Assembly: GCA_964187785.1 (NCBI GenBank)
Contig: OZ076409.1
Coordinates: 52,640,001-52,704,000, forward strand
Origin: Amphiscolops sp. MND2022
Lineage: Eukaryota
Length of the DNA stretch: 64,000 bases
Direction: 5' to 3'
The translations under genes and the position numbers were made by a program. This document shows positions 3,973 through 64,000 of the stretch, one piece after another (positions within the stretch are counted from its first letter, which is position 1; each line of letters opens with the position of its first letter). The notes beneath the pieces are model-generated. The model was given only the letters and a program-made list of their open reading frames with translations, was not told the origin of the DNA and made no database searches.

Positions 3973-5639
3973 CTATTGCTGCCTGACAACAGAGGGATAA
4001 CCCATCAATTGTTGTTGGTAATCGCAAAAGACTTTAGTTGGAGGATCAAGTCTGACATATTGTCGGACTGATACTAGATAGAGGTGTCGGAGCCGTGGTG
4101 AAATTAATTTTTTTGAATCATTTTTGGTTGATGTGGACTGAAAGTTGGACCTTGTGGAGTTAGGGCGAGCTTTCGGTGCTGTGGATTCTGGGTTGCTGTC
4201 CGATGAGTCTTCAGCCCTAGTACGTTTATGCTTGAGATGTGCGCCTGCACCCTGCCAACATCGTTCCTCAGGATGGTTTGTTTTCCCACAAGTCCACTTT
4301 CTGGGTAGTTTTTCTTTTGAGTTGGTTTGCCCTTCTGGGCATCCTACTCCATTTTTTTGAGTTTCTCGCAATTTTTGACCATTTGACCCGTTTCCTGAAG
4401 TAATTGCAGACGATATTGGTGAGTATCCCATTGAAAAGAAGGTTGTTGGGCTTAGATGTTGAAGATGTCATTGCCACCATTGGCAAGTCGTCGGATTCCT
4501 CAAGGGCGTTAAGTTCCCTTTCTGTCTCAAGATGGGCAACAATTTCGTCATAAGAACCATTCCTATGTCGGGCCATGTTGACTGATCTCTTGAGGATTGG
4601 GGGTAATTTCGCTAAAAGGAGATTGTCTATCATGCTTCGAGCCTTGTCTCCGAATGCTTTCTCTGCCCCTTGGTTCAATTCCTCAAGAAAATCGGGTAGT
4701 TTCATTGTATTGGGGTCAAAGCCGAAACGATGCCATTTTTGTTTGGCAGTCGTTGTGATTCGGGTTTGGCGTATTTTCGTCTGAAGATCACCAATAGGTC
4801 CTCGAGGGTCTGTCTGTAGATTGTATTGATGTTCCGGAATGTTTGTAGGGCTCCTTTGCGGAGACGTTAATTTTCATCTGTTCTGACAACTCCGGTTGCA
4901 TCTTGATCATTTTATGAAAGGGATCTTCAAAGAGCTCAATCTTCTCGCTTTTCCCGTCGATGGTCACTGTATTAGAATTGACTGGACGAATAGTGAGTTG
5001 TGGGTGAGCTCAGGTCGGTTTTGCAAGCTAGTCAGTGAATCGGCTAGTCTGTGAATTGGGTCTTGTGCGGCCATTGGAGGGTCTTGTTCTGGAGTGGGTT
5101 ATGTCGCCTCAAGGGAGTCGTTGTGATCACAGTTGGACTGATTGGACTGTTCATGACGGGTTGCGTCCCGTGGGAAACTTAGGGAATCATGAAATGGAGA
5201 TTCGTTGTCTCCTGTCACCATGTAATGAGTATACTCATTTTTCTCATCTCTAATGAGGTTTCGAGGAAACTCATCTCTCGAACTACTCCCGAGCTTGCGG
5301 TTAAAGGCTTCCTTAGATCTGTAACTATTCATTACTTGCTTCACTTAAGGCCTTTTCTATCTGTGAACTTACACTACTCGTTAAAGATCACAGATCTATT
5401 CAGTGATCCTTCGAAATAATTCCCCAGGCATTCTATTTTCATTCTCTTTAGTGTTAGAGTCAGAACTTGAGTCATGATTAACGAGGGCTTTCTGGTCTTC
5501 TGACTGCATAGCTTAGCTTGCTTTCCTTTCTTTTGAAGTGATTGCTACCTAGCTTTAGATCCATGTTTTCAATGTTTGATAACATATCAGTTTCTCTAGA
5601 TTTTCAAGCCTTGCTCTTTTGCTTTCTTGTAGTAGGCAT
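3973..5639 (-). pseudogene. gag: gag of family A, starting inside the LTR
   Basis: MPTTRKQKSKA*KSRETDMLSNIENMDLKLG from ATG 5639; reads THY-MVTG across the LTR/PBS junction; capsid-like KLPDFLEELNQGAEKAFG (4268-4705); zinc knuckle; frameshifted. Confidence 0.75.
5209..5220 (-). other. Primer-binding site TGGTGACAGGAG (tRNA-Leu-like, tentative)
   Basis: TGG directly after the LTR-terminal CA; one mismatch from TGGTGTCAGGAG, the complement of a typical metazoan tRNA-Leu 3' end. Confidence 0.6.
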
Positions 5640-7276
5640 GATGAATACCCGATGGTATGATTCGAATTACTATATCGGAAAGCGATTATTTCAATATAGG
5701 TTTGAACACTGATTAGCTCGGAAAGATTGTGTCAGAATTAAGGGGCTGCAGGTATAACTACCTTTGCAGGCATGACATTCACATTTTTGCATTTCATCAA
5801 TAACATATTTATCATCTCATCTAGAGGAAAAGTCACATGATCTTCGGATGTTTTATTCCTGGAAAGTCACCTGATCATCAGCGGTTAGGAGCATTAAAGC
5901 TACGGAAAAATCTAAAACCTACTACAAAACATTTTGAAAACAACTTCAAATGAAACAACGTAATTTTACCAGCTGCAACATTTCTTCAAAGTGCCAACTA
6001 ATAGCAAAAAGTCTTACAAACATGCATCAACAATATCAGGCACGCATTTACACGAGAGCCATACCAGGTCACAAAAATGGAACAAACTTCAAAATACATG
6101 TATGGGGATTAATTAGTGTAATAGCCGAATACGGCCATCAGACGCAACAATGCACTTTGAGCAATAGCCGGAATAGGTCGAGAGACTGGTTTTTAGAGCA
6201 CTACACAAACTAAATATTGACTACTTCAAACACCAACACTAATTACGATTAAAGATTTCATAGCGCTTTGAGTACTTGTCTGTTTATTTGGCCGGAACTA
6301 TTATTGCACAGCGAACTATTAGTCAAACGGCGGTAACCGGCAAACAACCATACTGCACTATGAGAATGAAGAGCTGTGATTGGTTAATGGGGGACTGGTG
6401 AGTATCGCTGCCGTAAAAGTACGGGAGCTCTTTCCAACTCGTTTCCGTACTTCTTCGCACTGTTATACATTTGCCTAGCATTACAACATTCACAGCTTTG
6501 ATTGCAATTCATCGCATTAAACAATTCAACCAACATTTCTAATATTCCAATATATAATGTTAACAATCTAATATTTCCCATATTCAAAACACGAATGCAG
6601 CAACAATATACGATAACATTACCTTGCATAAGTAATTGTACCTACTGATTGTCCGTGTATGTAGCGTATTGGTAACCAAACACCCAATGTAGCGTATTTC
6701 ACTCACGTTCTGGTACGGCTTCGTGTTTTGGATGTGATAGGCGGCTCTGAAAGTCGAATCTGAAGGCTGGTCGATCGGAGTCTCCACTACAAGTCCTCTT
6801 TCGTGTGGAGGAGAAGACATGGGTGTATCTGCGACTGGAATTTTTGTCTTGCACAACTGAATTCTTTCTCGGGCGTCTTCTTTGACAGGGGCGTAACACA
6901 GCTTTTCGTCGAAATGTACTTTGCTAAATTTGGAGGCATCACCTCCACACATCTGACTTGTGCTAGGCCCATCAACCATTTCTTCCATTACTTTTACGCG
7001 GTGTTATGCATTTGCTTAGCTTCACAACTTTCACCAGATTTTATTGCAATTCATCGCAATAAACAATTCAACCAACAATTCTAACATTCCAGTATATAAT
7101 GTTAACAGACTAAAATTCCCCATATTCAAAACACGAATGTAGCAACATTATAAAATAATATTAATTTGCATCAGTAAACGTTTAGTTTTAGTATATAGGG
7201 AGTGTACCCGGGGCTGGATCCTAATTGCTGGCGCATGTCGTATACTTTCTCCTGTCACAGGCGGCAGCCTGCGACA
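5221..7276 (-). repeat. 5' LTR of family A element (about 2.06 kb)
   Basis: On minus starts TGTCGCAGG and ends CATTACA directly before TGGTGACAGG; both termini and an internal AACTCGTTTCC block are homologous to 38726-40228 and 56414-58364. Confidence 0.8.
6670..6988 (-). pseudogene. Fragment of the family A accessory ORF embedded in the LTR
   Basis: HFDEKLCYAP..PMSSPPHERG..AAYHIQNTKPYQNVSE..GCLV aligns with YFNKEMCLAP..PLSPPDHERG..ASYHVQNIKPYENVSE..GCMV at about 58520-58770. Confidence 0.8.
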
Positions 7277-17200: not shown

Positions 17201-17319
17201 ACTCTTTAGTTTTTTTGAAGTTGTTTCTGTGTTTTTGTTTTCTTCAGTTGGATAACTGTACTTCACGTTTCTTTGGACTTTGAGCTAGCCTTGACTTTAA
17301 ATACTTTGCGAGAACCTTG

Positions 17320-17500
17320 ATATCTTTGAATAGTGACGAATACTGCTTTAACTACTTTGATGTTGATCTTTACAAAGTTTAATTCTTTGAAAACTGACGA
17401 AGACTGCTTTGAGTTTTTTTAAGTTTCTCTTTACAAACTTTGAATCTTTGAACACTGACGAAAATTGCTTTGAATAACTTTGAATTTGTCTTCACAAACT
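17320..17500. repeat. About 61-bp tandem repeat (3+ copies) upstream of BEL gag
   Basis: TCTTTGAA.A.TGACGAA.A.TGCTTT recurs near 17322, 17384 and 17445. Confidence 0.8.
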
Positions 17501-17911
17501 TTAGATGCGTCGATTTTTCAAACTTTGGAAACTTGTGAATTTCTTAAAGTTGAAATACTTCGTATGTACTGGAAAGTATTCTGTACGGATTGACGTTACA
17601 TGTTTGAAACTTTGATTGGGGAGAAAAGAAATTTTTCCAAAATTTTTGGAAGGTTAGGTTGTTTAAATAAGCTTGTTTTAAAAATAATTCGCAAGCTTAT
17701 TTTGTCAGTAAACATTGATTTTTGTTCAATGAAATTTTTCAATGGCCACCAAACAATTGTTTGAATAAGGCGACTTAAATGAAGAGTAGTATTTACAAAA
17801 GTGAACAAACTAGAAAAAGGGTAGCAAGAAGTCAATACGAGTTTGAGTTTCAGAGTCTTGAGCTTTGGAGTTTTTACTATCAACAGCTGGTATTTCTGTT
17901 TTGACAGTATG

Positions 17912-27600: not shown

Positions 27601-30600
27601 ACGGAAATCGAGTGGATTGGCCATAAAATTGACCAAAATGGTATCAGACCGTTACAAGACAAATTATTGGCAATAAAAAGTCTGAAACAACCGAACAACG
27701 AGAAAGAACTCAAATCATTTTTGGGAGCTATCCAATACTTGTCAAAATACATAGACAATTTATCAGCACAGACGGATAGATTGAGACAATTGCTAAAGAA
27801 AGACACTGAATGGTTATGGACAGAAGAACACTCACGGGCCTTCGAAAATCTAAAACAAAAGATCACAGAAATACCGTTTCTGGCTCATTATAATTCAGAT
27901 TACCAAAACGTGATAATCACCGACGCCAGCACAAAAGGCCTCAGTGCGACGCTATGGCAAGAAAAACTGGACGGAAAATTAAAACCGATCGGTTTCGCAA
28001 GCCGACTTCTATCCGATACTGAAAAGAAGTATGCGACCAACGAACTCGAACTATTAGCAGTAGTTTGGGGGTTAGAACACTTCCGACTATACACTTACGG
28101 CAAACCGATGAAATTACTCACGGACCACCAAGCATTAGAACCGCTGGTAAAGCGGAACAGATTCAATAAAACGTACAGCGCACGGTTGACAAGATGGCTT
28201 GACCGATTAGCACATTTCACAATAAATGTAAACCATATTGCAGGCAAGCATATAGCACTCACGGATTACTTGAGCAGAAATCCGTCAGCGCCGCCGCAAA
28301 CAGATGACGTATACGACGAAGAATACGTAATCAACAACATCTTACAGCACTACAAATTCATTTCCAAATACGGTTGCCTGAGCAACCACGCTAACCAATC
28401 AGAAAATGGAACGACGAAAAGCGAACGCAAAACAAACAACGAACCGCGGACACGAGAAAAGCGTGAACAAACTGCCATTGATTGCCTTAACAACTTACCG
28501 TCCACACGCAAAACTCATTTACAAAATTCATTAAATCCAAAAATCACAATGGACGCCCGAACAATTGACAATCTTGAAGCAGCAGATGCATCACCCGAAA
28601 CCACTGAATTAATTCAACGGTGGAGGGACATAGTAAAGCCCGGTATCTACCGCTTAACCGGGGGGAAGTGGAAAAAATACCACGAGCCAAAATTCCTCAG
28701 AAGCGAGAGAAAAGTAGTCGAGGAGCGCTTACAACAAATTATACAAGGCCGACAACAAGGAGACCTAAGACAAAGAATTGGTCCGCAGCACAGCGGCGGT
28801 TTCCAGCCACAAACCAGACGGTCGGAACAGTGGACAGTAGATCCATTCTGGGACGTGGACCGACCAACACCGGTCCAACAACAACAACATGACCAAAGCC
28901 AACATGACAGGCCCGGACCATCGTCAACAACAACAGACACACAACACCAATTCGCCCAAATACCCATAGAAGAAAGCGAAATTGAATCAGAGACGGACCA
29001 AGACCCGTCCATCCTAGAGGTGCCAGCGTGGAATTGGGCACGATACGTAGGAGTGAAGAGCGTGCAATATGTAAAAATGGGACACGCCCCCAAAGTAGCT
29101 GCACTGGACGAAAACACTTGGGACCTTGATCAATCCGTGCGAGAGACCGGAAAGAACTTCTCAACGGATCTGCAGTTACTAATGACCGAGACTACCAACG
29201 ATCCAACACTATTGAAGACACTTGTCAGCTTGGAACGACAGCAGCATGAATTGATCCTCGAGGAGTACCAATTGCACAAAAGAAAACTATCAAGTCGGTT
29301 CGGTCTGGTTTTCATTGAAGACAAAATTATTGTCCCCAAAAACCTCAGAGCGACCATTATCAGCCTCCTGCACAAAGGCCATCCAGCCATCAATAAAATG
29401 ACCCTGGCAGCAAGACATTTCTGGTGGCCGCGGATGACTGAGGCAATTCAAAAGAAATGCGAAACGTGTCTGCCCTGCAAATTGTCCGGTAAGAACATAA
29501 AACCTAACTTCCCTAGCACGGAAACAAATAGCCTTCCGCCATTGGATAATCCAAACAAAGAAATTCAACTGGATTTTATTGGTCCAATGACGGAAAATAA
29601 TCGTCGATTTTATGTCTTATTGTCCATGTACCGGTACAGCAAATGGCCAGCGGCGAGTTTTTGCACTTCAACGGACGGCGAAACGGCAGTAAAATTTCTC
29701 GACCAATACATTCGGCTAAACGGCATACCGAAAACAATTAGAACCGATAAAGCCACTGCGTTTACGGGACAACTCTTAAAACTACATAAAACTGATATAC
29801 GGGACACCGTATATACACACACCTACCGGTCTGGTAGAGCGTGGGGTAAGAACCTTGAAAGAAAACGTACTGACGAACAAAAAAGCCGGAGAACGCTTCG
29901 GAAAAGCCTTATATATATCTTTAGATGTAACGAGAAAAACACCGCACACTCAACTAAAAAAAATCCGCTTCCGAACTACACTACTGTAGAAAACCAAACA
30001 CAGAAATAAGTAACCTACTAAATCTGGATGAAATCGAAAAGTTAACAAAACGTTCCGTTTCAGCTAAACCTGATACCTTACAGGTATACTCTTTCAGTGG
30101 AGCTGGCGGTGTGTCCAACCTGCTGCCTATGAAGTCGAAGAAAAACTCAAAAGGAGTAAGTAATTGTCCCTTCTTATTTCTAGAAAAAAACACCAACGAA
30201 ATAAATTAGAAAGTGCATATTCCGATAAACCACAATTAGCAATACCGGGCACAAATCATACGGTAACCACCCCTAACGGAAGAGTAATACATTGGAAAAT
30301 GATAAGTAAACCCATTGATTTTAACCAGGAGTACAACAACAGAGGTACTGGGCCACGCGGACCGGACGGCCGATTTGTCAAATCACCGTCCAAACAACGA
30401 CGGGCAATGATAATCGACTCGGACGCCGAATCGGAAGCACCGTCAATGGATATAGACAGCCCAAAGACGCCAGAGCTCCCTACAGACACAACCACCAAGA
30501 AGAGCACATTCGGCCGAGGACGCCCATAATTGATCCGCGATCGCGCCAGCCCAAACACAGCCAACACACCTATGCCGGGAAGCAGCACAGGCCCGCTGAC

Positions 30601-33600
30601 AATTACAACGTCAAACATGCCGGACACGGAAATAGACCGTGCCATAGAAGACGCTAATAGTGCAGAACAAGAAATTTTCATCCGAGACGAAAACGGTAAG
30701 GTACTTACTAATGATAACACAAAACTGTTAGCAGAGAATCTGGAAAACTGAACTAGAATTAGCAGGTAACCTGAGCTCAAGCACCGAAATTGAAACTGAA
30801 GAAAAAGAACCAGTACGCAGATCGAAAAGACTGACAAAAATTAATCCTAATATTAGGTATAATAACCAATTTGTCATGATTACAGGAAACTCCGCAAACA
30901 GACTGAACTCGGGAACCACACCGAGTCAACAAAAAGCCAAACCGGAGGAGGGGAACAACAACCAGTAAACCGGTCACAAAACAAAATCTTGACGTTACGG
31001 CCAAGCAACAACCGTGACAAACGAAACTGCGAGGAGCGGTCAACCGCCCAACAAACACTGGACCAGTGGAGGAACAACAACCGCCACAACAGAAAGCAGA
31101 GACCCCCATTGGCAGAGATATCAGCCAATAGCGGAGGAAGGGTGAATGTAGAGGTGAGACGAACTCTTACGAACTTTAGAAACTAATTAGTCTGCTTTCT
31201 TGTTTATTTATATTAAATACCAGTCCTGCCACTTGAGCGCAGATGAATGTCTATACTCAGTGATAGAAAAGATAACAGTGAAAACAAGTTAATTCTTAGA
31301 TCTCTTAGATTCTTTTAAATGCTTGATTAGAGATACAACAATGAATGTAAGAGATGAAAATCCGTATTTTGAATAATCCGAATCCCAACATATTTACTGC
31401 AGCAAAACAGTGTTTCAATGAGTTTGAGCTATTTTCTTCGGACGCACTGATGTTGATTAAAAGATTGACTAAGGTAAGGTATATTGAAAGAAGACGCCCG
31501 CTGACCTGCGGTATATTTTCCACCCCAAATTGTTCTAGCAGCGGTGTACTTTTGAAGCCCAAGAGTAGCCCACTATGAAAATGCATGGAAGTTTTAAAAA
31601 ATTGAAAGTTTTGACACTTTTTGATTCATTTTATCCCCTTTTGAAAGGACACACTTATTTGTTCGAAGACTCCTATTGTTTTGTCGTTGAAGTGTGTGGA
31701 AATCAGTCACCACTTTAAATTTCAAAAAAAAGGCAACCCGAATGCCAAAAACAGTCTTAATATTTTAGACATTCGAAACAGGTACATTTCTCGAAACCAT
31801 CACTCCGAAGCAAGCAATAGTACACCAGGAAAAACAGAAAACTTTAGTTCCTTCAACAATTTTTTTCGAAAAACAAGACGCCCGCTAAACACCGGGATAT
31901 TTTCCGCCTTGATGAAGATCGCGGAGAGATGATAAAAAAAGATGGAGATGAGAAGTATCTGAAATAGTCAAGTAACTAACTAAAATAGTCAAGTAATCAA
32001 AAGATGGAGATCGTGGAGACTTGGCAGAGTTTGGAAAAAAACGCAACAGAGATTATGATTTTCCTCCCCTATTATATGTGGGTGGAAAATAACAATTCTA
32101 TCTTCTTAGAAACAAAAGTACTATAAGTAGATGACATTTTTGTTTTTCAGATTTTTGGATCCTCTAATCCCAAAGTTGCATGAAAATTCAAGAAAAACGT
32201 TCAAAAAGTTTAACTTTGGATCATGCCAGCTTTTAGGAACAGAAAAACTCCCAACCAAAATGATTTTACCAGTCTGTTTTCAAGCACTGCTGAAATTCTT
32301 ATCGCCGCTAAAACATTTAAATGTCATCAAAAATCCAATGAAGGCTAGCACAAAGTACAGTTTGTCAATTTTTCACAATTTTGACCCTTTGTGGGCATTT
32401 GGTGGCATCGCGAATCCAAAACGTATTCCTTTCAAACGTATGCTGCAAAGCTAGTGTTGTTTCTTTGAACTCTGACTTTCTATATCCACCAAATCGTTCA
32501 AATGTAGAATACTGTTTGAAAAAAGTGTTCTAAAAAACCATATGCCTTTTCGAGAACATTTTTCATACAATCTCATCCGATTTTTCCAATTTCTCTTAAG
32601 AACGAGTACTAATAGCTGAATATTTCAATGCTGAGCCTATTCGGTCTTCTATTTTAGGAAAAGCTTCGAAAGTTGTTTGAAATCTATATACCTGTTGTCA
32701 AAAATTCGGGAAAAAAGTCATTTTTTGTCATTTTTGAGAAACCTCACCCCACTTTTGCACTTCCACCTAACTAGCGGACTCGTTAAGTATCAAACCGTCA
32801 AAATTTTGAACGTTCAGGTCAATGAAAGTTCTAATTAACGGAACACTTCGATAATTGAACAAATATTAGAATTAAATTTTAAAACGAAGCGTTTTTGATT
32901 TTTAGAGGTGCATTTGAAGCACTTTTCAACCAAAAACAGGAGTTTTCGTTCCAAAAAAGCTCACCGGATAACTAATTCGTTCATCATTGAGTTTCTTGAT
33001 GTTTTTACTTCAAAATCTTGAAAGTTTTCCTAAAAACGCAATGAAAAACAACAAACGGAAAATTATGCAGTTTTTGACTCTTTTTGGGTAATTTTGCGGC
33101 ACTTCTATAACACAACCGGCACATATTTTATCAAAAGAAGCATACTGGATATTTTTTCGTCGTTGGCTTTTTTAAACTGAAAATGGCAATTTTTTATCCA
33201 AAAAACAACCTGCATAGCTGATTGTTCCGTTTTTGATTTTTCTTATCAACGAATGTTTTCAAATATTTCACAAAATGTCCGGAATTCTTTTACTTTTTGA
33301 GTTTTTTTCAGGTATTTTTCTTCAAGAAGCTGCAGATATCTTTAAAAAAACCTGGATACTAATTTCATCTTGGTTGATGAGTTTTTTCCGACGCATCTGG
33401 GGCCATTCTCAAGTGTTTTTGGAGCAATTGCGTGTTGCATAGCTACGTTTTTCACCTTTGAACGTTTTGAATCTTCTAACCAATTAAATCTATCAAGCAA
33501 ATCTGCATAAAAACGCTGAAAGTTGAAAAATTCCAAATTTTGTCCATTTTGGGGTCATATTGAATCGCTCTGGGGTCGTTTTGTGATTAAACCAAAAACA

Positions 33601-36600: not shown

Positions 36601-39600
36601 TAAAAGCAACAGCGAACATTTTAAATAGAGATAAGAAGTTGATAAGACTTGGGCTAATAAACTAATAAATGCAATTACCTAATCACCTATAATTTTTCTG
36701 CTAATTCCAACTTATTTTTGTGATCAAAAAACACAAGTCAAAACACCAATGAGGCCAAAGCTTTAGGATGACAATATAAAACTTCTCAGGTTTAGGAGAA
36801 CTTTCGTAATAGTTGTCATTTAGCATGGTTAAAACACTTTGCTCTTTTAAGGTATAAGCACGTCGGAAACCTAACGTTCACGTCGGCGTGAATGACCTAA
36901 CGTTTACAAAGTATTAAATATCGGGAATAAGAACAATAGATGAGGAATCAAGCTCAACCAATCTGGATGCTTTTGTCTTTTTAAAATGAAACTTCGAAAA
37001 TTCGGAGGGTCCATTGACGTCATCTTTGCAAACAAATGCGTAAATCGTTTGGTTGTGGAACTGTGAAACAGAGTTTCAGTCAAAATCAAAATCTTCACAA
37101 TTTTTTAGGCCCGAGAAGGTCTCACAGTGCTAAAAATAAAGAATCCTTTGATCTCAAAGAAATTCCTAGTAGAGGGCCCTTAGGTGATTTTTCGCCCTCA
37201 GATGAAAAGTCGTATAGTGTTGAAAAAATACCAAGGGGATCTCTTTGATAAAATACAACTCTGAAATTAAATTTGTAAAAATGACCATCCGACCTGCTCG
37301 AGTAGATTTTGAGCAAAAAAATTGAAGTTGGAGCTTTGCATTTATGAAACTTTCAAAACTTCTTGTCTCGAAATTGCCGCCAAATTTAGGATGCATCTTT
37401 TAGGCAGCTTGATAAAATTCAATTAAATTAGTGAAACTTTAAAGCTTGGAAGTCTTCTTGAGAATTTTATAAAATCATGAAAAATTAGCTTGGTAACCTA
37501 CAAAAACTTGTAAAACGTTCAAGCAGTTTCAACCAGGGTATGATATCTGTAGTCTAGATACAACAAACTAGCCACCGTAGTAGTGAAGTGGGTGCATTTT
37601 CTCTTGGAGTGTGCTGACTGCAACTGGTGTTACAAATTACATGTCTAGAACTTCCGAATGTTGTTTTGATTTGACGTTGGAAATTTTTTCTAACAATTCG
37701 GAGACTGCTGCGCCACGGGAAACTATTTGGCGTTTCCAACAAGAAAAATGTAAGACCCCAACAGTGGATTTTTTCTAAAGCTCTTACTGTAAGCTGTCAA
37801 GAGGGAAAGTGCACGCGGGTTTAATGCCCACTTACTTTTCGAACTTTTTTCTGAACTTGAGTTAAATTTCAGAAAAAACTTCGAATATCGTATAGAAAGA
37901 TATGTTAGATATGTTACAGCTTCAAAAAGTCTGATTTAGCGTTTTTTCTCCGTTTTTGCCAGCAGTAATATGAACTCCCTTTCAAATTGATTTTTTTTAA
38001 AATATCAGTTTCTGATATAAACCATAATTTTGATGGACTGCGGATAATATGTTGTTGTAGACTTTTTTTACCATGGCCCAACTTCTTTAAGGCATCATAA
38101 GTGCTCCTTTCAAAGTCCAACTGAGTGTTTCACGATTTTTGCGAATCGAACCCTTGTTGAAACTTGAATTTTTTGCATGTACTTTCGTGTTGCCAGCAAC
38201 TTTTATTATGATTTTCTAAAACTCTTACGGAAACTTTCATGCGAAAACATTTACCTGTTGTATTCGACTTTTATCAAGCTGCTTGAAATTTTGATCAAAG
38301 ATTTGGCGGCAATTTTACGCCCTGGAGTTTTGCTAATTTTTAAAGAAACTAATAAATCGCTCTCAGTTTAACATGCAAAATAACTTCAGTCACGTAATAA
38401 ACTGCAAATTAGCGTCCTATTTGAGAAGCGGTGATCTTATCACATGAGTAGTTGAGAAAACAAAGTGTAAAAACGAAATAATTGTGTCGGTGATGAAGTG
38501 GTATTTATTTTCAAATTGAATTGCAGTAGTGGAAAATGAAGTATAATTCTACAAGATTTACCAACTGAATTGCTACTGAATTTTCTAGGTTTTATAAAAC
38601 AAATTACCTGAATGCAGGCCTGCAGCGTGTAAAAAGCTCCTGCAGTCTCAACTATGGAAGGCATAAAGAGTCCTGTTTTAGTGTTTTTATCAACTTGTGA
38701 GTTTTTTCTTATAAAAAGAAGGCACTGTCGCGATTTTGTTCGCTATTGTATGAATCTACTGAAATCTCTCTAGACCTGTGTCTACAATTTTCCTGCATAG
38801 GGACCGTTTTGGAACGCTTCACCCACGCTTTCTGTACATTTCCTGCTTCGGGGTTCCGTTGTAGCTCACTGGACCTTTGGTCCTCTGCGGTGGAATTGGC
38901 AGTCCTTATGCCAGGGTAAGGCTCATTGGACCCCCGGTCCACCACGGTGAAATTCGTTCTCCCCTGCATAACTAACGTATTTCGAATGGAGGGAACTACC
39001 GTTTCAGTGATCGCTGCAGAAATTGCGCTTTGTATTTGAAAATTGAGGCTAGATTTGATCTCACTGAATCTCCTTGTCATTTGGTTAGAAATTTCCTCAT
39101 TAATCATTCCACTGGTTTCGATAGTTATTTCACTATTTTCTCTACTATTTGTAAGCAGTGACCTAAAATCTTCTCCTGTTTCATTTGAATTTTTCTGAGG
39201 CCTCCTTGACCCTGAGTCCAAATTTAATTCACTTTCACTATGACCAACCTCCTCATCATTCCTTGAGTAACTACCTAGCATTATATCAACATTTTGAGTG
39301 TCAGACATAATGTCTTTCTTTAGCCTTTTGCTTTCTTGTAGAAGGCATTTGAGAATAAGTTCAATCAACGATCAATTAGCAGTGCAATTCAAAACAAATC
39401 GGTTTATCATAATGTGATTACAGTTAACTTGCTTGTATCAGGTTTATATCGCATTGATCGCTGCCCTCCCGTCTCTCCTATTAATAGTTGGAAGGGAGGT
39501 GACAAGCAAAAAACATGTAGTTAAATTTAGACAGAATCATCTAAAAATAGCCCCTTCAAGCTTTCGTCATAGTGACGTCATTTGTTTAGGTTACATCAAA

Positions 39601-42600
39601 GGCGAGTTAGACAAAACGTCGGTAAAATTTTACATTCATGTACTTCAACGAAATTTTCATGTTTTTTTACGGAACAGCAACACTGCATGTATAATCATAG
39701 CGTCATCACTATTTTACCAAATCAAACGCCAAGTCTACCTGGCTACAGTAACGCATTTGAATTACTGTATACACTCAAGTCACGTGGCTAGTTTCCACTG
39801 TGGACTTTGAGTCTACGCGGCGACAGTAAAGTAAGCACAAGTAAGGTATAAAAGAAGCACCGTCATTGGCTAATAACATTTGGACTGAGTGTACATTGAG
39901 CGCGATCAAAAGCACATTTGAACTCGTTTCCTTGTACTAATTGTTAGTATCTCAAAGTACTGTACTTCTTTTACCAGTTTACAGCTCTTGTTAACTAACA
40001 TAGCAAAATACAGGAGAATCAGCAACGATTAGAAACCAGGCACAAAATGAATTATTAAAACATAATATTATCTAAGTCTAATTGTGCTGATATTATTTTT
40101 TGTTGTGGCCGTACGGACTACAGGTCCACTAAGTTTTTTTATCGGGAGTACACCTGGTGGAGGATTAGTGTTGTCCCCTTCTACCAATATTTGATAGAAG
40201 TTCCTGTCGCAGGCGGCAGCCTGCTACAGGTACATTTTTCGCAATCTATCTACTAAAACGTTTCAAAGTTTTCAAAGTTTTATTATATAACGGATGTCAA
40301 TATTTTAGATATACTTTACAGGCGCGAATAACGTCTAAACGTGTTTCGCGAATAACGTCAACAGACATAAAGTCTAAAATTATTCCCGCTTGCTATTATT
40401 CCTTCAGATCTTATTCCCCCAACCAACCGGAAATAACGACTTCAAAAGGGAAAAACGTCTAAACACAAGAATAAAGTCTGAAATCGGGAAAAACGTCTAA
40501 AATAACATTTAGAAATCATCAAAATACGTCTGAATCGGTCTTCAATCAGAAACAACCCTTTTCTATTGGAAACAAAAAGATATTGAAACAAGCACAAATA
40601 TGAGTAGTAGCGCGAATAACGTGTAAGGAAAAACGTCTAACAGTTTTCCGGGAATAATGTCTAAAGGAATAACGTCTACAATTCAGCGCTTCAAGATAGG
40701 GAATGCGCATAACTTGGCTACAGACGTTCTCGTTTTGCATTTAGACGAGATTCCTTAGATGTTATACTACCCCCAAATGAGAACTGTAGTGGTTTTTCCT
40801 CGAATTCGAGAAAACTTCCTTCGAAGATTTTCAAGAAATTGATGATTTGCATGGAACTTGAATCGAAATGCTCACAAAAGCCTATTATAACCTTATTTCT
40901 GGTAATTTGGAATTGGTTACGAATTTCGTGGCTGAAAAAAGTATCAAAAATGAATTTTCAACAATCAAAATCGCTGATTATAATATACCGTTCTCAAAGT
41001 AGTTCCCTGAAAAAACCGTATAGAACTTCAATATGAAATTGTTTTCGCTTTTCCAAACCCGAAAAGTGATAAACATTTTGTTTTTCAGCAAGCCGCAAGC
41101 AAAACAAACATTTTCCGCTAAATTCGTACGAATTTGTTTGCCACACTGGCATGCCTTGATTATTTCTTTATGTCTTATTAAAGCGTCTTTGCTTACAAAA
41201 TTTGAGATTTTTCCCTAAAAACCTGCAAAATGTTGCGGGTGATCTTTTAATTTTCTTGAAGTTGCTTTGAAAACCCGCAAGGGGGTAGAGAAATCTTGAT
41301 AAATACATGAAAAACCATTGACGCACCATGAACATATTGAGCATTAAAGCGTCTCTAGCAGCTCTCAAAAACCTAATAAATTTGTTTTGTAGCCTATAAA
41401 AACATGTACAAGTTTCGAGCACTTTCAACTAGATCATGCATAATTGCATTAACTAGTTTTCAGATCAGTAGAGACTTCTCAAGTTTCAAATATTACGACG
41501 CTTTTATGTCGATCAATATGAAGCTGGAAGGTGTCTGATTTTTCCAAAAGAATATTAGCAGAATATACAAAAAATATCACAATCCCACTGAGCCTCTTCG
41601 TTGTTCATGAAACAGTCGGTGTATTCTCAAGTCTCATGACCAATTTCATAAAATTTCCCATGGATTCTTCAATTGATATGCTTCTACTGACAGTTCTAAC
41701 GAGATTGTTTTGAAAGTCAAAATGTTTAGAGCGTTTCGCAAATATAAATGGAAATGCCTTGTTATCGCTATTCACAGACAAAAGTTTCGAAGCACTCCAT
41801 AGTAGACGCTCCTCGAAAAAAAATAAACCAACCATATGAAGTATGAAGTTCAAGCAGCCGATTGGATTTTTGGATCGATGGAAAAACTTTCTCAATCCGC
41901 TCAAATCAAATGTTCTTAGACCAATCGAAAATGAAACATGACGAAAATTCGATAGTTGACTCAGCTCATTCTCTCACGATGCCCCGTCGTTTTTGCTATG
42001 AAGAAAAACACGCCTTTTAGGATTCAATTGGACGTATCTTATATTAGAGCAGGAAATGAAATTGAGGTCGTCTTTTTGAAGCATGCTCCATAGTAGGAGA
42101 AACGCGATGGAAATCCTATAATTTAACCATGAAAAGGCCTTAGAAGTTTTTTAGTGAAAACCAGAACAGAACATTGTTTAACTGAAAATAGTAGTTCCAC
42201 GTCTAAAAATAAACGACAATATGTTAATTCGTACCCAACTGTGTTTTATATAATTGCAACGTTGCGATTCCGATTCAAAATTTTCGTTTCGTAAATTTCA
42301 TGAATCTTATTTTGTTTTTCCCTTATTCTCGCCAAACGTATTTTAAGTAAGTTAAAGGTTTATTGTTAGTGAAAAACAATGAACATTATTCAACATCAAT
42401 GATGACACACGTGAGGTCGACTTGTGTCTCCGTTGTTATTTCCTTGTTTCAAGCATCTATTTTAGAATCTTGATATCCTCCAAGATGAGCGTAAATTGCA
42501 CAACTTTTGTTGGCCCGTTTTTCTCACGGAGTAGATTATTAATCTTGTTTATTGCATTTTCGGTGTAGTTGCTGACATGCTTTTTAGATTGCAACTTCCA

Positions 42601-56375: not shown

Positions 56376-56999
56376 TCACTCCTGTCGATTCCAGAGACGG
56401 AGAAATATGCTCTTGTCATGACCAATCAGGTCAGGGTATTCATCATTTGGTAGGTTTTCATCCTGTCCTTCTCTCAAGCCGTTCTTTGCGTTTAGGTTTC
56501 GCTGAACTTCGGAATTTAGTTCAGGTCTCTCGGACGGAACGTCCCATCCTTTTCTGGTCCCGTGTCCTGATCCGGCCATAATAACATTTTGAATTTGAGG
56601 AAGTACTTGGGCACTTATTGCATCACTTATGGCCCTCTGTATTTGGACATTCACAGAATTCATCATCTCATCCATTTCTCGTGAGATACGAGAGTTTAAC
56701 TTGCTGGACAACCTATTTATTTCAGCGCTAGAATTACCTGTGACTGAATTTCGGTCACATTTGGTGTTCATCCCTGGGTCAATATTTCTCTGAGATCTGT
56801 TCATGTTCTCATTTCCATTTTCAGATTCATTGCTTAGAGAACTCCTATACCTTCCAGGTAAGTTGCTATTCAAGCTGCCTTCCCTTTCCCTCGTACTGAA
56901 ATGACTCTCACCTAACATTATATCTAAGTTCTCGATATCAGATAACATTTCGTGTCCTCTTGACTTTCTTGCTTTCTTCTGTTTTCTAGTTGTAGGCAT
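56376..56999 (-). CDS. Open 207-aa gag N-terminal ORF inside the 3' LTR, running into flanking DNA
   Basis: MPTTRKQKKARKSR..MLSDIENLDIMLG..QIQRAISDAI; homologous to the gag start at 5639; last 12 aa come from the flank. Confidence 0.7.
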   Translation of the reverse strand: MPTTRKQKKARKSRGHEMLSDIENLDIMLGESHFSTREREGSLNSNLPGRYRSSLSNESENGNENMNRSQRNIDPGMNTKCDRNSVTGNSSAEINRLSSKLNSRISREMDEMMNSVNVQIQRAISDAISAQVLPQIQNVIMAGSGHGTRKGWDVPSERPELNSEVQRNLNAKNGLREGQDENLPNDEYPDLIGHDKSIFLRLWNRQE

Positions 57000-58364
57000 A
57001 GAGACAGATCCGGGTCGAATATTTCAATTATCAGAACCGGAAAACGGTATTTCGTTATAGGTTTGCAACAAAGATTATTTTCAACTGATTGTAAAGAGCA
57101 GAACATAAGATTGTGTCTGACCAAGGAAGTAGCACCTACATATACTGCCTCGGGCATGACATACATAGTTCGAATACTAAAAATGTGATGACCACATTCC
57201 GAGAGCACCTGATTTTCATAAGTTTACAAACATCAAAGTACCGCTAAAATGTGATCGGAACAGTCACACGACCATTCAAATTCTTACTTTGACCACACTA
57301 ATAAACATTTGAAAGGCACGCAGAGCATCAAAGAACATCATATGAAATGCACAAGCCGCTCATATTCAAGGAATGCCAACAATCTCGTGCCGGCACGTGC
57401 CCCGTTATCAGACAGGACTGACTATAAATCAACATTTTTACATGCTATTGTACATGCTAATTTCTATGAAATATTGCCACAGATTGCACAGGTTAGTTGG
57501 TGAAAGTGGCCAGAAAGGTCTTTCAGACCGGCGCATGCAGTAACATCATAGATTAGCATCGATCACACTAATTAGTTTAGAGAACTACATGAATGTTTAT
57601 AACACGATTACAAACATACATTACATTTAAAGTACATGAACTCATCAAACAAAACATCCGGTTATTAATTTGAATAGGAGCCTTAACCGGCTACTACCCG
57701 GTTGGTTCTGGCAATGCGAAACAATAATCATGCAATTGGCCTTATTCGGCCAAGTATCAAGACAAAGCACTAATTACTAAATTGAACATTTAACCAGTGT
57801 TAAAGCACAACTATTGTATTAGTAATCAACACTCAAAGGTATTACAATGTGTTTCTTTCATTACTGCTTCGTGGCCGGAATCGGCCGTTTGACTAAAGCA
57901 CCGATAGATAAAAACAGAGTTCTGTCGAGTGGCCTTAACCGGCCATTTGTCGAATACAGCAATAATAGCACAAGCATGGATAAGTATGATTGGCTAACGA
58001 GGTGAGCTCAAGTGACGTCTCCGGAATCAGAGTTGCGTTCACTTGAACTCGTTTCCTATACGCTATTTAGCCGTGTTTGCTTCAATTATATTATTGTACT
58101 GCACTTCAAGCTTCGCAAATATCAGCTCATTATTTGAATCTTTCAGTTGTTGGCATTAACGGACTAATACTGGCAAAAGGTGTACAGTAATTAAAAAATT
58201 GGCAACAGTAACAAATCTAACTTACAAAACTAGCAAAATAACATAAGAGTTTGAGTTTTAAACGTTTTTACTTCTCTAATAGAATGGTAGGGTGCCGGTC
58301 GCTATCTCTTGCCCTTCTGCTGAAGTCGTGATTCTAGTGCCATCACAGGCGGCAGCCTGCGACA
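56414..58364 (-). repeat. 3' LTR of family A (1951 bp)
   Basis: Minus strand TGTCGCAGGC...CATGACA; shares GGCATGACAT, GATTGG.TAA and AACTCGTTTCC blocks with the 5221-7276 LTR. Confidence 0.82.
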
Positions 58365-59063
58365 CTGCGGGTGTTAGGAAAAGTAAGCTCCCTGCATTTA
58401 ATCCATTGGAGTATGCTTCTCGTAGTAGCGCGGTAATGTAGGCGGGTTCACTTTCGGGCGTCGATCTCTCCATATACCAGTTAATTTTCTCTTCTTTTAT
58501 CTGGTCCCTTGACTTGCCACACACCATACAGCCTGTATGGAGGCTCTCACTGACATTCTCGTATGGCTTAATATTCTGCACATGGTAAGAAGCATAGAAG
58601 TTCCCTGGGGTCATCTGCACCAGAGGGGTGTCAATAGGTCCTCTCTCGTGATCAGGAGGGGACAGAGGAGACTCCAAGACAGGCAGTACCGTAGTGCAAA
58701 GTTCGACTCTCGATTTCTTCTGCCTTTTGGACGGCGCGAGGCACATTTCCTTGTTGAAGTACTCAAATCCCAGTTTGGGGGAGAGGGCAGAATGGGCTGA
58801 GTATTGCTAGTCCCTGCTACCATTTCGTCGCTTGAGTCTTCTGCCGTCATCACTCGTCCAGCAATCGGGATTGGAGCTGCCTTGACCTCTCGCTCAATTC
58901 TGTCTATTATTGCCTCTGTATCCGTGGACCAGTCCGAATCCCAGGAACTTGAAACTTCATCTTCGCTATCACTAGATATGTAGATCACTGAGTTGGCTGA
59001 GCTTTCTGAGTCTTCTTCAAAGTCGAAGAGTTTATTAGTCAAGTTGTATCTTTGCATTATCAA
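58276..59063 (-). pseudogene. Accessory ORF (about 260 aa, one frameshift near 58770): acidic N-terminus, CxxC, C-terminus inside the LTR
   Basis: ORFs 58611-59063 and 58276-58746 join by one frameshift, supported by the continuous homolog at 6670-6988; tail SQAAACD..G[TV]LP present in all three LTRs. Confidence 0.72.
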
Positions 59064-59409
59064 TTTCTTAGCAATTTTGTTAGGTGGGAAGGTCGACTGA
59101 CTTGATCAAGATTTCAAAGTGGAATGAAGTTACCAATTCAAGAATTTGGTCGAGTCAGGGTTTTTCTCGGTAGTCCGTTTTGGCGGTTGAATCTTCGGTA
59201 AATCGTCGTAATCCGACATAAACATTCCTGAATGGAATTTCACAATTAGTCGGCATCCTTTGATAATTCAGTATTTACCCTTCATTAATATCATCACTAT
59301 GAGAGGTGTGGATGACGCTCGAGTTGTAAATATTAACTTCGCCTGTTTCAAGTGGGTAATTAACAGGTCGCTTGAAAACAATTAACAGCATGCGTCGCAA
59401 AGTTTTCTC

Positions 59410-59510
59410 AAAATGGCTTCAGCCAATTAGAATCGAGCTTCGATAAATTGAAAAATGAATAATAAAATGGCGGAAATAATAAAGCTAAATAATTCCAAAA
59501 TGGCGGAAAT
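59410..59510. promoter_or_regulatory. Candidate bidirectional promoter with two YY1-type AAAATGGCGG motifs and a CCAAT box
   Basis: AAAATGGCGGAAAT at 59464 and 59497; AGCCAAT near 59422; lies between divergent ORFs. Confidence 0.4.
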
Positions 59511-60110
59511 TCTAACTAGAGGTAACTAAGGCAACTGAACAAAACGGTAAAACGGAATAGGGCAAACGGCCATAATCGGCCACTAACTAACTAAGCTGTA
59601 AATAGTGTATGCTTCCTGTACATTTCGCTGGCAGACTCCATGTACATTTTAAATATGTAGATAATCGTATAATATTAGTCTGGTAATCCTCTTCAGCCAC
59701 GAACTCCAATCCTCCAATTTATCCACGTTAAAATTCCAGTTCAATTCCGTTTATTATTTATTTGTTCCACTTCCTTTACTTGGGCCCACTCAGCTGGTAC
59801 TCGTCTCTCTTTTGCCCTCAGTCAGCTGTTGACTCTCCTCTCTACAGTATCCCGGGACACCCTTCTTGCCAAGGCCGGCTAAATCCTGCAATCTCTAGCT
59901 ATTTGCCTAGGATTACATCCCACGAGTCAACAGTCCAGAAAGAACATGTCTTCAAATCCAGGTTGGTTTCATTTTCAATTAGTGAACTAGTCTAGCTTGA
60001 TCAAGGCTACACTTTGCTCAAATACTGCTTCCTGTTTCCACAAGTAAACATGTGATAACACGTTTCATTCAAGTTTTCGAACACTTCCCGAAGATTTCTG
60101 ACGCGGTAAA

Positions 60111-63100
60111 ATGGATTCTTTTCAAGGAAGCATACCGCCGACTTTCATTTCTTTCTATTTGGATAATCAAACCCCTGAGATCGGAATTTCTCCAAATCCT
60201 TCTGAACTGCCTCTGCCAGCTTCCACTGAAGACGCTACAAATGCTTCCGGGAATGTCGCCAATCCTCAGATTTCTTCTCAGAATACGGATAGCGACGAGG
60301 ATGTGAATGCATATGCGGAAGCCAAAGCCTCAAGCATGGAGACTGGGATACTCCAAGTACAGGAACAGTCAGGTGTGAATGCCAAGGATACTGAGTTATC
60401 TCATGCGGAGATTCGTTCCAGCCAACTGGAGACGCAGACTATGTTCCCTATCCGTGCAAGCACTCCAATTCCCTTTGAGACAGCTGGGACATCTCAAGCT
60501 AGTCTGACTGCCTTAGAATCGGGACTGAGAGTTGCTGATCCTATAGGATCCCAATTGCCCGAACTCCTCACCACGACGCCGACTAAGGCTATTGTCCGAA
60601 TTTCAACAACCGATGATGATTGTGAATCTTCCGTGTATGAAGTCCCTGCTCTCCCAACACAGGAACATAAGGTCCGATTCTTGACAGACCTCAGTGAGCC
60701 TGAGAAAACTGCGGAAGAGTCAAGTAATGCAATCTGCCCTTCGTTATATGGGGGAATTCCGAATATGTCCGAATCTGGAGCAGAGACAATTGATCCGCCC
60801 GACCTGACAATTTCGGCTCAAGAACAACTAGAGCCTGAACCTTCAACTTCCAGGGGGACCGGAGACCAGCTTCCAGAACTCTCCGGGAGAGCAGGAGCCA
60901 TTCTGAAGACATATTTTGACGAGACTAATGCCTTCAGGCTACCACCCGGGCAGACGACCGTGACTTTCTCCGAGCCACAGGTGTACCATTTGCTGCGTGT
61001 TTTAAGCGATGAGACTCTTCGCATGTCCTACACAACCATTGAACGCATGATCCTAGACGCTGTTCGCGGTAGTCCAACGATCGCACCATCAAGGACCGGG
61101 CATTTCCAACTGGGGACGCGCCCACAAACTCCTTACCGATACGCTAGTAGTGATTCCAGTGATGCCGAATCCGGCCAACTGCCCATCGTTGATTCAGAGG
61201 ATCAGAGTGCCACCGATTTTGGTGGTTTAGGCGACTCCTCCACATTCGGGGAAAGTGATAGTGCCGGGGAAATGGCTTTGATCTCTGCCACATTCGAGGC
61301 TTCCAACAACCGGTCAGCCGTCAAGACTACATCTTTGCCAGCACCAAGTGGACTAATCCAAGTGGACAGCCAGGAAACGGACTTCAGCAGTCAAGACGCG
61401 ACGTTGTCTGAAGTGAGAGATCAGACCCTGGGGACCAAAGGCAAGCAGCGAAATAAGAAGGCTAGTAAGCCTAAGAGGGTGTCACAACGCGGAGTCCCAA
61501 TGAGGGGAGAATTCTTCGCCAAGATCGGGTGGACACGCTCATTCATTTCCGGACCCGCAGACCCGCTACACAACCCCTATATGGTTTGGTGCCATATCTG
61601 CAAAAAGAATTTTTCCATACGCACCAAATTCTCAGACACCATCGTACCGAGAGGCACCTTAGACGTGATCAGCGGTGGCGGTACGAGCACTTGAAGAGCA
61701 CCGATCCCGTCACTCTGAAGACTCAACATCGCGTGCGGGGCAAAAACGGGAAAATCTTGACCAGATTGGAATTGGCCAAGGAGCTTCCCAAGTTCATACA
61801 CGCTGAATTGGTGGATATCGGGGAGCGCTTCCTCTTCTATGAGGATTTCATTCGAGGCCGGACGACTCCTCTGGTCACTCCGGAGTCTCGCGCACGAACT
61901 CAGCTGTGCATGGTTGCCGATTTTATCCAGCATCATGGCGACATTGCAACCCTCCGCAACATGTGGGCGAAGATCAGCTCGTTCACCGATCACCAGGCAG
62001 CCCTTTGTGACTTTGATTGGGGGGAAGAGAGAATGACTGTAAGTACTACCTTTTCGCTTTACTTACAAACTCCCCCTTTCGAATTTAGTTAGGTTCTCAA
62101 CTCATTCCCCTTTCCAGGCCATATTCCAGCATCTCTTCAATTGCAGCATGCATGACATTGCAGACCACATCTCTTCCTCGCAGTTCTTCGCTCTGGAATT
62201 TGAGGATGAAGGAGCTAGCCGCTTCATGTCACTCAGGTACTGGAAGGGTCAACACTTGTGCAGGGTCGTCATCTGCCGCAGCGGGTTGCCCAGTACAGAT
62301 CTCACTGGCGAGTTAGGTTCTTTGGCCCGCCTGCTCTCGGTGGTCTCAACGAAGGCAGATATTGTGGCCTGTTCCGGATGCCCTTCTGAATTGATCCGAC
62401 ACTAGATGAACTCCCGACCTCTTCCCGAGCTGTCCAAAGTTGCTTCCGATTCAGCCAACTGAGTTTACCCAAATTGATGCACAAAAGCAGTTACAGTGTT
62501 TTCGGGCATCTGGACTTCTTCTCAGTGTTACGAGGTCTGGTTATCTCTTTGGGTGGATCTTCTCAAGAAGATTGGGTGCAACGCAGTCCTGAATTAGCCA
62601 AGGTTAGCAAAAATTGGGGTTTCAATGTTAGGCGCACTTCTGACTAGTTTGGGACGTTAGCCTAGGTCTTACAATGATTCTGAATTTTCTCCTTAGGCTA
62701 TCTCTAAAAGTGACTTGGAGCTCTCCACCTTGCCAATTCTGTGTCAGGAGCTCATGGAAGAGTGGAAATTCGTAGGTATGAAATTCTTTAGGTAGGAATG
62801 ACACAGGCTTACTATTGTTTCCTGTTATGTTCTAGGTCCAGAGTTTTGAGTGGTCGCTCATCTGTGATGAGTTTTTCCTTGTCAAGCTGGAACTCTTCTA
62901 CCACCTCGTCAGCGATTGTTAGTATCACAAGGTGGACTAATTTGTCTTGTTGAGACTAGTGGGGATTGTTCCTTTGTTTTTAGACAACTCCAGTTTTGTA
63001 AACAATCTGCAATGTAGACGAGACTCGTCCTTCTACCTTTTTGGAGAAATAGCCCGGTACATTTATCGGCTCTGCTTCCGCTGTTATTCTCCCGACACTA

Positions 63101-64000
63101 TCCCGCTAGAAAATTCATGGGTCCTTCTCTTGAATTTCCAGACCAGCGAGGGGACCTTCATGCCAGCGGACGAGTTCCTGACCCGGCTGAAGATGACCAA
63201 TAAAGTTGCCAAATCTTGCAAGCAGAAAGCGGAAGATGTGCATTCTGGCAAGAAGATTGACAGGGCTGCTGTTCAGAAGACCGCCACTACCATTAAGAAT
63301 GATTTCGTCCGGGACACTCAATCCTACTTGCAGTATCTGATTGGAACAGTCCTTCGACAAGCCGGCCTTTGCTCTAACCTCGTCAGGGGGCTTGCTGCCT
63401 TTGACCCTCACATTATGGTGCACAGGCCTACCGAAGTAGCTCTCCGTCATTTTGACCTCTTGTACCGTACCTTCCAGCTTCGATCTTGGGTTAGCTCTGC
63501 AAACGAGTCTGCCTGTCGAGACGAGTACGTGGAGTTGCTAGATCAACTTCGTGCCGCCTCTCTACCTTCCTTTGATGTCACCCAGGGTTCTCCGGATCTG
63601 ATTGACTTCCTCATCAACCTTGCTTTTATGCAGGAGCACAGTCACTTGCTGTACCTATTCAAATTGAGCTGTTTGTGTGTTACCTCTAACAGTCCTCGTT
63701 ATCCGGTAGTAACTGTGGGGTCCCTCAGCACTTCAAACTATCAAAGCAGGCTCACTGACGTAGTTTTACCCGTGCAGAGTTACCTGTCTGGAGTTCCTGA
63801 CTCTGTTGTTTTCTGTAGCAATGAGTCCAATCTGAGTAAATTCTCTCTTCTTTCCGCCTCATTCGGTCGATCGGCCTTATCCTCCTCCTATGACCCCTGG
63901 ACATTCGTTGATGAGTTTGGCAGGGGGAAGATCTACAAGACCTTATTGACGACGTATCGTTCTGCACTTTCCGGACTGGGGGAAGAAGTTGGAGACCCTC
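60111..64000 (+). pseudogene. Spliced hAT-transposase-like zinc-finger gene (>1190 aa, two frameshifts): exons 60111-62038, 62118-62602, 62697-62771, 62836-62917, 62984->64000
   Basis: Four GT-AG introns of 79, 94, 64 and 66 bp with compatible phases; BED-like WCHICKKNFSIRTK..ILRHHRTERH; FFALEFED, MSLRYW and LAAFDP in hAT-like order; last exon open for about 339 codons to the window end. Confidence 0.7.

Follow-up and report, generated by a model that had tools for sequence, protein, structure and literature searches.

THE LOCUS

The window, by which we mean the whole stretch of 64,000 nucleotides of Amphiscolops sp. MND2022 DNA that was analysed, carries on its minus strand three long terminal repeats (LTRs) that open with a hairpin. 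One is a 3' LTR of 1,951 nt running from TG to CA (56414..58364), whose 5' partner lies just outside the window, at locus L077, and is 98.5% identical to it across 1,951 nt. The target-site duplication (TSD) AGAGC beside it (56409..56413, minus strand) repeats the 5 bases preceding the 5' LTR in L077. The first bases of this 3' LTR, the start of U3, form a 24-nt hairpin (58341..58364, minus strand), identified by motif match and folding, in which base i pairs with base 25-i and whose 5' arm contains the integrase end motif TGTCGC; the same letters encode (V)SQAAACD of a minus-strand open reading frame (ORF, 58276-58806). The sense strand upstream of position 58364 reads CTTTTCCTAACACCCGCAG. 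Two of its bases, AG (58365..58366, minus strand), lie between the predicted RNase H cut and the TG and are the predicted 2-bp extension for removal by integrase. At the place of a polypurine tract (PPT) stands a candidate non-purine plus-strand primer, composed of a U-rich tract followed by the G+C run CCCGC (58367..58390, minus strand), to which a function can be ascribed putatively.

The other two hairpins, also recognized by motif match and folding, are on the minus strand as well. That at 40205..40228 opens a solo LTR of 1,503 nt with the TSD GTACC/GTGCC (38726..40228). That at 7253..7276 opens a 5' LTR that precedes a decayed gag-pol and, with an internal duplication counted in, measures 2,056 nt (5221..7276); right after the CA of this LTR comes the primer-binding site (PBS) TGGTGACAGGAG, complementary to the 3' end of tRNA-Leu(CAG) (5209..5220, minus strand). 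The duplication in this LTR is spaced by 542 nt within 6448-7177, and a piece resembling the accessory ORF described below (6674-6916) lies between the two copies. The hairpin motif occurs in the window at 7254-7276, 40206-40228 and 58342-58364 only, all on the minus strand, and matched none of 100 shuffles. As sense RNA the three 24-mers fold into stems of 9-10 bp with a 4-nt loop (-12.7 to -16.8 kcal/mol, z -3.0 to -5.4), and the opposite strand of the 24-mer at 58341 folds less well (-10.5). Folding of 60-100 nt around the junction gave no excess stability (z -1.06 and +0.51), and Rfam returned no match at 58200-58500.

Two further LTR elements lie in the window. An unrelated gypsy family, family B (25575-31340, plus strand), has short LTRs and served as a control, with an ordinary PPT, GGAGGAAGGG, touching the TG of its 3' LTR (31133..31142, plus strand). 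A decayed element on the minus strand (11600-17800) has peptide pieces that we take to be BEL/Pao-like. An earlier, sequence-only reading of this DNA had proposed that LTRs start with the hairpin at the three places given above, that the hairpin encodes QAAACD and that family B has an ordinary PPT at 31133. All of this is borne out: the sequences are where that reading placed them, the hairpins are on the minus strand, and all three are true LTR starts.

The start of gag (MPTTRKQKK...) lies inside the LTR (56414..56999, minus strand). Gag reads from the LTR through its end and the PBS, which adjoins the CA without a spacer (56414-56999 and 5209-5640, minus strand). At the other end of the element, a sense accessory ORF (58276..59105, minus strand), about 260 aa long in open copies and split into two frames here, crosses the junction into the 3' LTR and ends 83-98 nt inside it in most copies (about 88 nt here). 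Its protein has a conserved CxxC, another Cys and a His. It has 496 database relatives, those looked up being unnamed; no Pfam family was found at the cut-off and no fold match was obtained with its model (pLDDT 54), Atlas matches being 0.90 or lower. Part of an antisense multi-exon gene, with a zinc-finger-like exon and a weak hAT-transposase-like fold, occupies 60102..64000 (plus strand) and is also present in loci L034, L066 and L070 and in the sister lineage introduced below. The exon has no sequence match in the PDB, and its model (pLDDT 44) retrieves the Hermes transposase only at rank 5 (Z 4.7, rmsd 6.2, 136 aligned). Between the divergent antisense and accessory genes stand two copies of AAAATGGCGGAAA (59400-59520), a sequence that resembles a YY1 site; the paired copies suggest a two-way promoter for both genes.

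A LARGE AND RECENTLY COPIED FAMILY WITH EXACT ENDS

The 24-nt motif has 4,082 exact matches in the genome (1.07 Gb) and its reversed control has none. The elements that bear it constitute a large, recently copied family of Ty3/gypsy LTR retrotransposons. Twenty LTR pairs about 14 kb apart were picked from the first 100 listed motif matches. All 20 of the 5' copies have unrelated flanks before the TG, and all 20 of the 3' copies have the accessory ORF there. Exact 5-bp TSDs bound 16 of the pairs, one has a TSD with one mismatch, one is non-matching and two right ends were not resolved. The LTRs of these pairs are 1.5-2.1 kb long and 93.7-100% identical, two elements of group 1 (defined below) standing at 100.0%. 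The elements are about 16 kb long and carry two extra genes between pol and the 3' LTR. In 17 of the 20 5' stretches TGGTGACAGGAG follows the CA directly (one has a variant, two were not resolved); it matches the 3' end of tRNA-Leu(CAG), a tRNA being called at one of the four loci scanned.

The order of pol, with protease, reverse transcriptase (RT), RNase H and integrase, is that of gypsy elements (Pfam, locus L071), the best match to a solved structure is the Ty3 Gag-Pol (PDB, E 1.7e-46), and the catalytic residues, those of RNase H among them, are intact in the open copies read. None of the 120 RT homologues listed carries an element name. No related element was found in viral contigs. A database lineage of 32 members is absent from the genome (best matches 31-42%), which makes it likely that other hosts carry the family as well.

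That the LTR begins at the TG, as had been proposed, is settled by the TSDs: those of 16 of the 20 pairs, of six of ten pairs in the sister lineage and, for the window element, AGAGC all place the boundary there. A start at the CC before the TG, suggested by two window copies, was rejected: the other 5' and solo copies have random flanks at that point and the TSDs end at the TG. Helitrons end in a hairpin followed by CTRR and make no TSD; CTAG follows the hairpin in the window copy and not in most others, and TSDs and RT are present, so that a Helitron end was rejected. DIRS-type retrotransposons use a tyrosine recombinase and also lack TSDs, and such an element was rejected on the rve integrase and the 5-bp TSDs.

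Some arrangements of these sequences were observed in passing. Two elements are three-LTR tandems with outer TSDs (L155-L157 and L161-L163). The junction region also forms a 1,545-nt tandem array on C1 (47790829-47797121). A dense tandem array of tRNA-Leu-like ends begins at about 35.59 Mb on C8; genome-wide there are 942 forward and 14 reverse matches to these ends, most of the listed ones being in this array.

SEQUENCES PRECEDING THE 3' LTR

The junctions between the accessory gene and the 3' LTR were sampled by coding patterns outside the hairpin, so that copies were not chosen by it. The pattern for group 1, which includes no hairpin letter, had 916 matches and that for group 2, in which the C-D-G codons are fixed, had 1,075. 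Of 200 listed sites 60 were fetched, mostly in listing order, the last 20 being picked partly by eye so as to pass over near-identical copies. Together with the 20 paired 3' LTRs they gave 41 junctions of group 1, to which the window copy belongs, and 39 of group 2. A sister lineage was found by its integrase end at 507 loci; proteins from the database that share this end show about 74% identity in RT. It also has both extra genes, and its TG starts are bounded by TSDs in the six pairs mentioned. Its junctions come from 34 of 50 fetched stretches, 31 of them distinct.

Group 1, group 2 and the sister lineage all lack a canonical 3' PPT, by which we mean a tract of some 10 or more purines that stops 0-2 nt short of the 3' LTR. 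No purine run ends at -3 in group 1 (0 nt in 41/41 junctions), no run of purines within -20..-1 exceeds 2 nt in 40/41, and 59% of the bases over -15..-1 are pyrimidines. Group 2 has a run of 4-6 G ending at -3, 2 nt before the TG, in 38 of its 39 junctions. The sister lineage has an interrupted tract before the TG, in which an A-tract is followed by two pyrimidines and a purine run of 2-3 nt (31/31 rows). The absence of a PPT claimed by the sequence-only reading thus holds for group 1, and normal tracts in other copies, which that reading had named as a refuting outcome, turned up in part: group 2 has its short G run, and an all-purine tract some 6 kb upstream, where pol ends, is found at 2,270 of 2,427 loci.

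What the lineages share just upstream of the junction is richness in G+C. The G+C content of -7..-3 is 91-97% in all three, with a purine share of 0.21 in group 1, 0.94 in group 2 and 0.74 in the sister lineage; the run reads CCCGC, GGGGG and GCGGG, respectively. An A or T stands at -2 in 39/39 group-1, 36/36 group-2 and 27/31 sister junctions. Further upstream, at -25..-8, a run of at least 4 T or A is present in 34/41, 16/39 and 26/32 junctions in the same order, and in 4-12% of control windows. In a metagenome contig, L168, with 35% protein identity, CCCCCCGGGAG precedes a letter-identical hairpin. Group 1 is one clade, in part by a quick tree, and none of the outgroups tried settled its order relative to the two clades of group 2. 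Because L168, the sister lineage and the two clades of group 2 all have G at -4 and -3, CCCGC is likely the derived state.

These bases can be compared with the rules established for HIV-1. The HIV-1 RNase H prefers C or G at its position -5, C, G or U at -4, C or G at -2 and A or U at +1 (PMC5728404). When this rule is applied to 205 bonds around the junction, a single bond, the one 2 nt before the TG, fits in 80% or more of the copies of each of the three lineages (0.98, 0.95 and 0.88, on a background of 0.08); L168 also fits at that bond. A second bond, at +7, fits in 1.0, 0.92 and 0.61. An RNase H-preferred bond is therefore present, by sequence, at the junction of primer and U3, the rule being that of HIV-1 and not of this enzyme. 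In HIV-1, cutting directly after A- or U-tracts is hindered, a U-tract protects the primer and the PPT's G-tract acts through strong pairing (PMC5766924).

The tracts of U or A are also codons for Phe, Leu and Lys, and several of the bases that fit the rule are first or second codon positions, which means that protein constraint contributes to the pattern. The fourfold degenerate sites at -5 and -2 are informative in this respect: they changed once each on the tree of group 1 (control mean 7.9) and twice and not at all on that of group 2 (control mean 10.9). Judged by these two sites, the bases just upstream of the TG are under a constraint of their own, beyond codon needs. Of the non-canonical plus-strand priming that had been suggested, a primer without purines is supported; the upstream constraint and the fit of the cut 2 nt before the TG point to ordinary geometry with an unusual sequence more than to a new end-making reaction.

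A foreign primer, be it a tRNA of the host, a different small RNA or some protein, could also start the plus strand at the LTR under the guidance of the hairpin, and the accessory ORF, which overlaps the site and is without known function, would offer such a scheme a partner. We hold it to be quite improbable: the upstream sequence differs from lineage to lineage, shows no CCA end and no fixed match to a tRNA end, column counts in all lineages revealing no copy of a tRNA 3' end terminating in CCA just before the 3' LTR, and the catalytic residues of RNase H are present.

THE HAIRPIN IS CONSERVED BEYOND ITS CODONS

The codons for Q-A-A-A-C-D give a partial palindrome whatever their third bases, and the first 6 bases of the hairpin are the end motif. 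It could consequently lack any function itself and merely result from the integrase end and from conservation of the peptide SQAAACD. Trees built without the hairpin motif, from 31 of 42 group-1 and 32 of 39 group-2 rows (stops, shifted register and exact duplicates being dropped), speak against this. The fourfold sites in the hairpin changed 0, 0, 0, 0 and 1 times in group 1, against the control mean of 7.9, and 1, 2, 5, 1 and 1 times in group 2, against 10.9. Pair 8:17, read by eye in 51 listed sites matching a synonymous pattern, is G-C in 39, a compensatory A-T in five, G-T in five and mismatched in two.

The sister lineage provides a comparison in which the peptide itself has changed (SHPPRCD, SRPQRCD, SPGFPCE). 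Its hairpin has a 6-nt loop and the pairing axis is unchanged. Pairs 6-9 are formed in 81% of cells, against 23-40% when the register is slid. Pair 8:17 occurs as five pair types, and pair 5:20 is G-C in 25/31 and A-T in 4/31. For pairs 7-9, 72 of 93 cells are paired, where shuffles give 57.9 and none of 5,000 reaches as high, a figure in which the relatedness of the copies inflates independence. The sister stem also crosses the junction, with pair -4:+29 in 31/31 and pair -3:+28 in 30/31 copies, two-sided changes being absent from these outer pairs.

Among 196 database proteins with the motif, five read Q-V-A-T-C, which by the genetic code converts C10-G15 into T10-A15 and keeps pair 10:15; one V-A-A and five A-A-T in the same set break it. 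DNA of the Q-V-A-T lineage was sought in the genome and not found, and the six double-change copies scattered there could reflect decay. On the frozen fourfold sites, the altered sister peptides and the double change in the five proteins, the by-product reading is very improbable in our estimation and can be regarded as largely refuted. Codon constraint had been named beforehand as the explanation that could undo the claim for the stem; it did not do so, for hardly any synonymous site has changed and the pairing register persists in the sister lineage with other letters and another peptide. On this pattern of substitution the hairpin is under selection as a structure, which codon constraint does not explain.

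As to the strand that folds, wobble pairs in groups 1 and 2 (21 G.T against 5 A.C) favour the sense strand, and the outer stem of the sister lineage does likewise. The inner sister stem has 12 G.T and 8 A.C, and the sense-strand 24-mer folded better in only 9/27. The idea that the minus strand forms a stable DNA loop of the GNNA type was dropped, the loops being variable.

Selection on the structure does not by itself assign it to priming. The hairpin might be used otherwise, as an RNA signal for packaging, dimerization or export, or as a site for the accessory or the antisense zinc-finger protein, with the primer made locally as proposed below; it would then stand at the LTR start merely as that stretch was already held fixed. 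Several properties suit such a separate role. Loop base 14, and base 11 in group 1, are near-invariant though unpaired and synonymous, which suggests reading of the sequence; the 24-mer is a near-perfect palindrome; and the upstream bases fit the RNase H rule by themselves. Moreover, replicated subfamilies of group 2 each have one unpaired position in the stem (a C at 5, a T or A at 9, or a G at 6), so that a perfect stem is not needed. On the other hand, L168 and the three lineages all have the axis at a constant place relative to the LTR start, the sister stem spans the junction and its loop letters vary freely. We consider a separate role unlikely, though of appreciable weight.

A CENTRAL PURINE TRACT

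The integrase ends in PRGG(K/R)YNLRP, and it is over four codons of this end that the tract noted above is all-purine at 2,270 of 2,427 loci. In the window element it is 12 purines long and lies upstream of the 3' LTR by about 6 kb (L077, 412-423, minus strand). It is the only long purine tract common to the family. By its sequence and position this 12-nt tract is a candidate central PPT, likely serving as a second primer for the 16-kb genome. Among 20 copies, the HIV-1 cut rule finds no bond at its 3' end that fits in more than 20%. The sister lineage encodes the matching Gly by GGT or GGC in the 100 loci listed, of 507, and read by eye, and no purine run near the end of pol was present in more than 5 of 30 loci there. 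With pyrimidines possible at this peptide, the purines near the middle of the genome are conserved further than the codons demand.

Plus strands might then be primed from the central tract only, or from scattered RNA fragments, leaving an over-long left end or a circle that integrase or another nuclease cuts internally at the CA of the extruded hairpin. The lineage-specific tract, present in the window element too, and a hairpin that begins exactly at the end motif agree with this, and HIV-1 without 3' PPT priming keeps central priming and makes 1-LTR circles (PMC13332604). The sister lineage, however, has neither a clean 3' PPT nor a central tract, yet its ends are exact. The wobble pairs of groups 1 and 2 favour the sense strand and not the strand that integrase would cut, the upstream bases fit an RNase H site, and extended ends lower processing by the HIV integrase (PMC13332604). 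None of six upstream stretches ends on the left at the central tract: two are the tandem elements with ordinary outer TSDs, one is cut short and three are uninformative. The one pattern tried for LTR-LTR junctions in the genome found none. Central-only priming accordingly strikes us as improbable.

PROPOSED PLUS-STRAND PRIMING

We consider it probable that the plus strand is primed locally, at the junction with the 3' LTR. The reading we favour, with modest confidence, is that the 3' LTR does without a purine tract, that RNase H cuts the plus-strand primer 2 nt before the TG by means of the U/A-tract and the G+C run, and that the hairpin helps to fix the boundary. By analogy with HIV-1 biochemistry, the U/A-tract would protect the upstream RNA and the RNase H cut at -3/-2 would leave a plus-strand RNA primer; as with retroviral integrases, the 2-bp extension would be trimmed by integrase. 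Instead of purines, the element would retain rigidity in one tract, strong pairing in the next run and a bond that RNase H prefers, and the hairpin just downstream would help fix the boundary. We may guess that, after minus-strand synthesis, the nicked U3 RNA refolds as a hairpin, quits the hybrid and exposes template beside the primer end. The position of the hairpin makes a role in priming or in end definition likely and, if priming is local, its action in that very step is fairly probable. Cut preference and tract protection are carried over from the RT of HIV-1, not taken from the family's own enzyme.

HIV-1 G-tract mutants show no priming in vitro (PMC13332604). As such mutants lose priming and integration, the precise integration observed here stands out, and the same loss calls for caution towards the local-primer model. 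A possible, more tentative reading is that the left end is set by the folded structure and not by the primer sequence: the hairpin would direct RNase H or, on a cDNA that the central tract had primed and that was circular or too long, would direct integrase, leaving the PPT free to decay under the accessory gene until its loss in group 1.

COMPARISON WITH KNOWN SYSTEMS

The 3' PPT has been treated as a fixed part of the replication of LTR elements and retroviruses, and its recognition has long been debated. The family described here likely represents a new plus-strand primer design within Ty3/gypsy elements; the pattern is real and not explained by codons. One genome, with closely related RTs, offers a series from an interrupted A/G tract through a short G run to no purines, all with exact integration. 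The series makes it testable whether primers are chosen by how rigid the tract is, how strongly it pairs and whether RNase H prefers the bond, and not by purines; the conserved hairpin may be a positioning element of a new type. Thousands of copies that look intact would be misjudged by annotation tools for which a PPT is obligatory. In the literature searched, most subscription papers and the repeat databases lying outside the search, no gypsy lineage was found whose primer site is of pyrimidines or G+C and whose U3 begins with a hairpin; a preprint on ATHILA detection has the phrase 'no PPT' twice.

Ty3 of Saccharomyces cerevisiae and other Ty3-gypsy elements share with the family the order PR-RT-RNase H-IN, TG..CA LTRs, a 5-bp TSD and a tRNA PBS. 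The differences from Ty3 are the length of about 16 kb, the gag start inside the LTR and the two extra genes from pol to the 3' LTR; in addition, Ty3 has an all-purine PPT of 14 nt (PMC3185511) and group 1 has none. Exceptions to the all-purine rule are the PPTs of HIV-2 and of Mason-Pfizer monkey virus, which contain a single pyrimidine (PMC3185511), against the predominance of pyrimidines before the group-1 LTR. An internal, central purine tract is also known from the LTR retrotransposons Ty1 and EVADE of Arabidopsis, where it adds to a normal 3' PPT (PMC7197481), whereas a normal 3' PPT is missing here.

The likeness to HIV-1 extends further. There too an accessory ORF, nef, runs through the primer site into U3, and integrase removes a dinucleotide at the LTR end (PMC5893875). 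The succession of a U/A-tract, a strong-pair run, two bases and the TG is common to both, and in both the integrase end holds one more purine tract (PMC13332604, PMC7197481). Unlike in HIV-1, the strong-pair run of group 1 is CCCGC in a pyrimidine-rich primer region, and a conserved hairpin starts U3. HIV-1 mutated in its G-tract forms 1-LTR circles and loses priming and integration (PMC13332604), whereas the elements described here integrate with exact ends.
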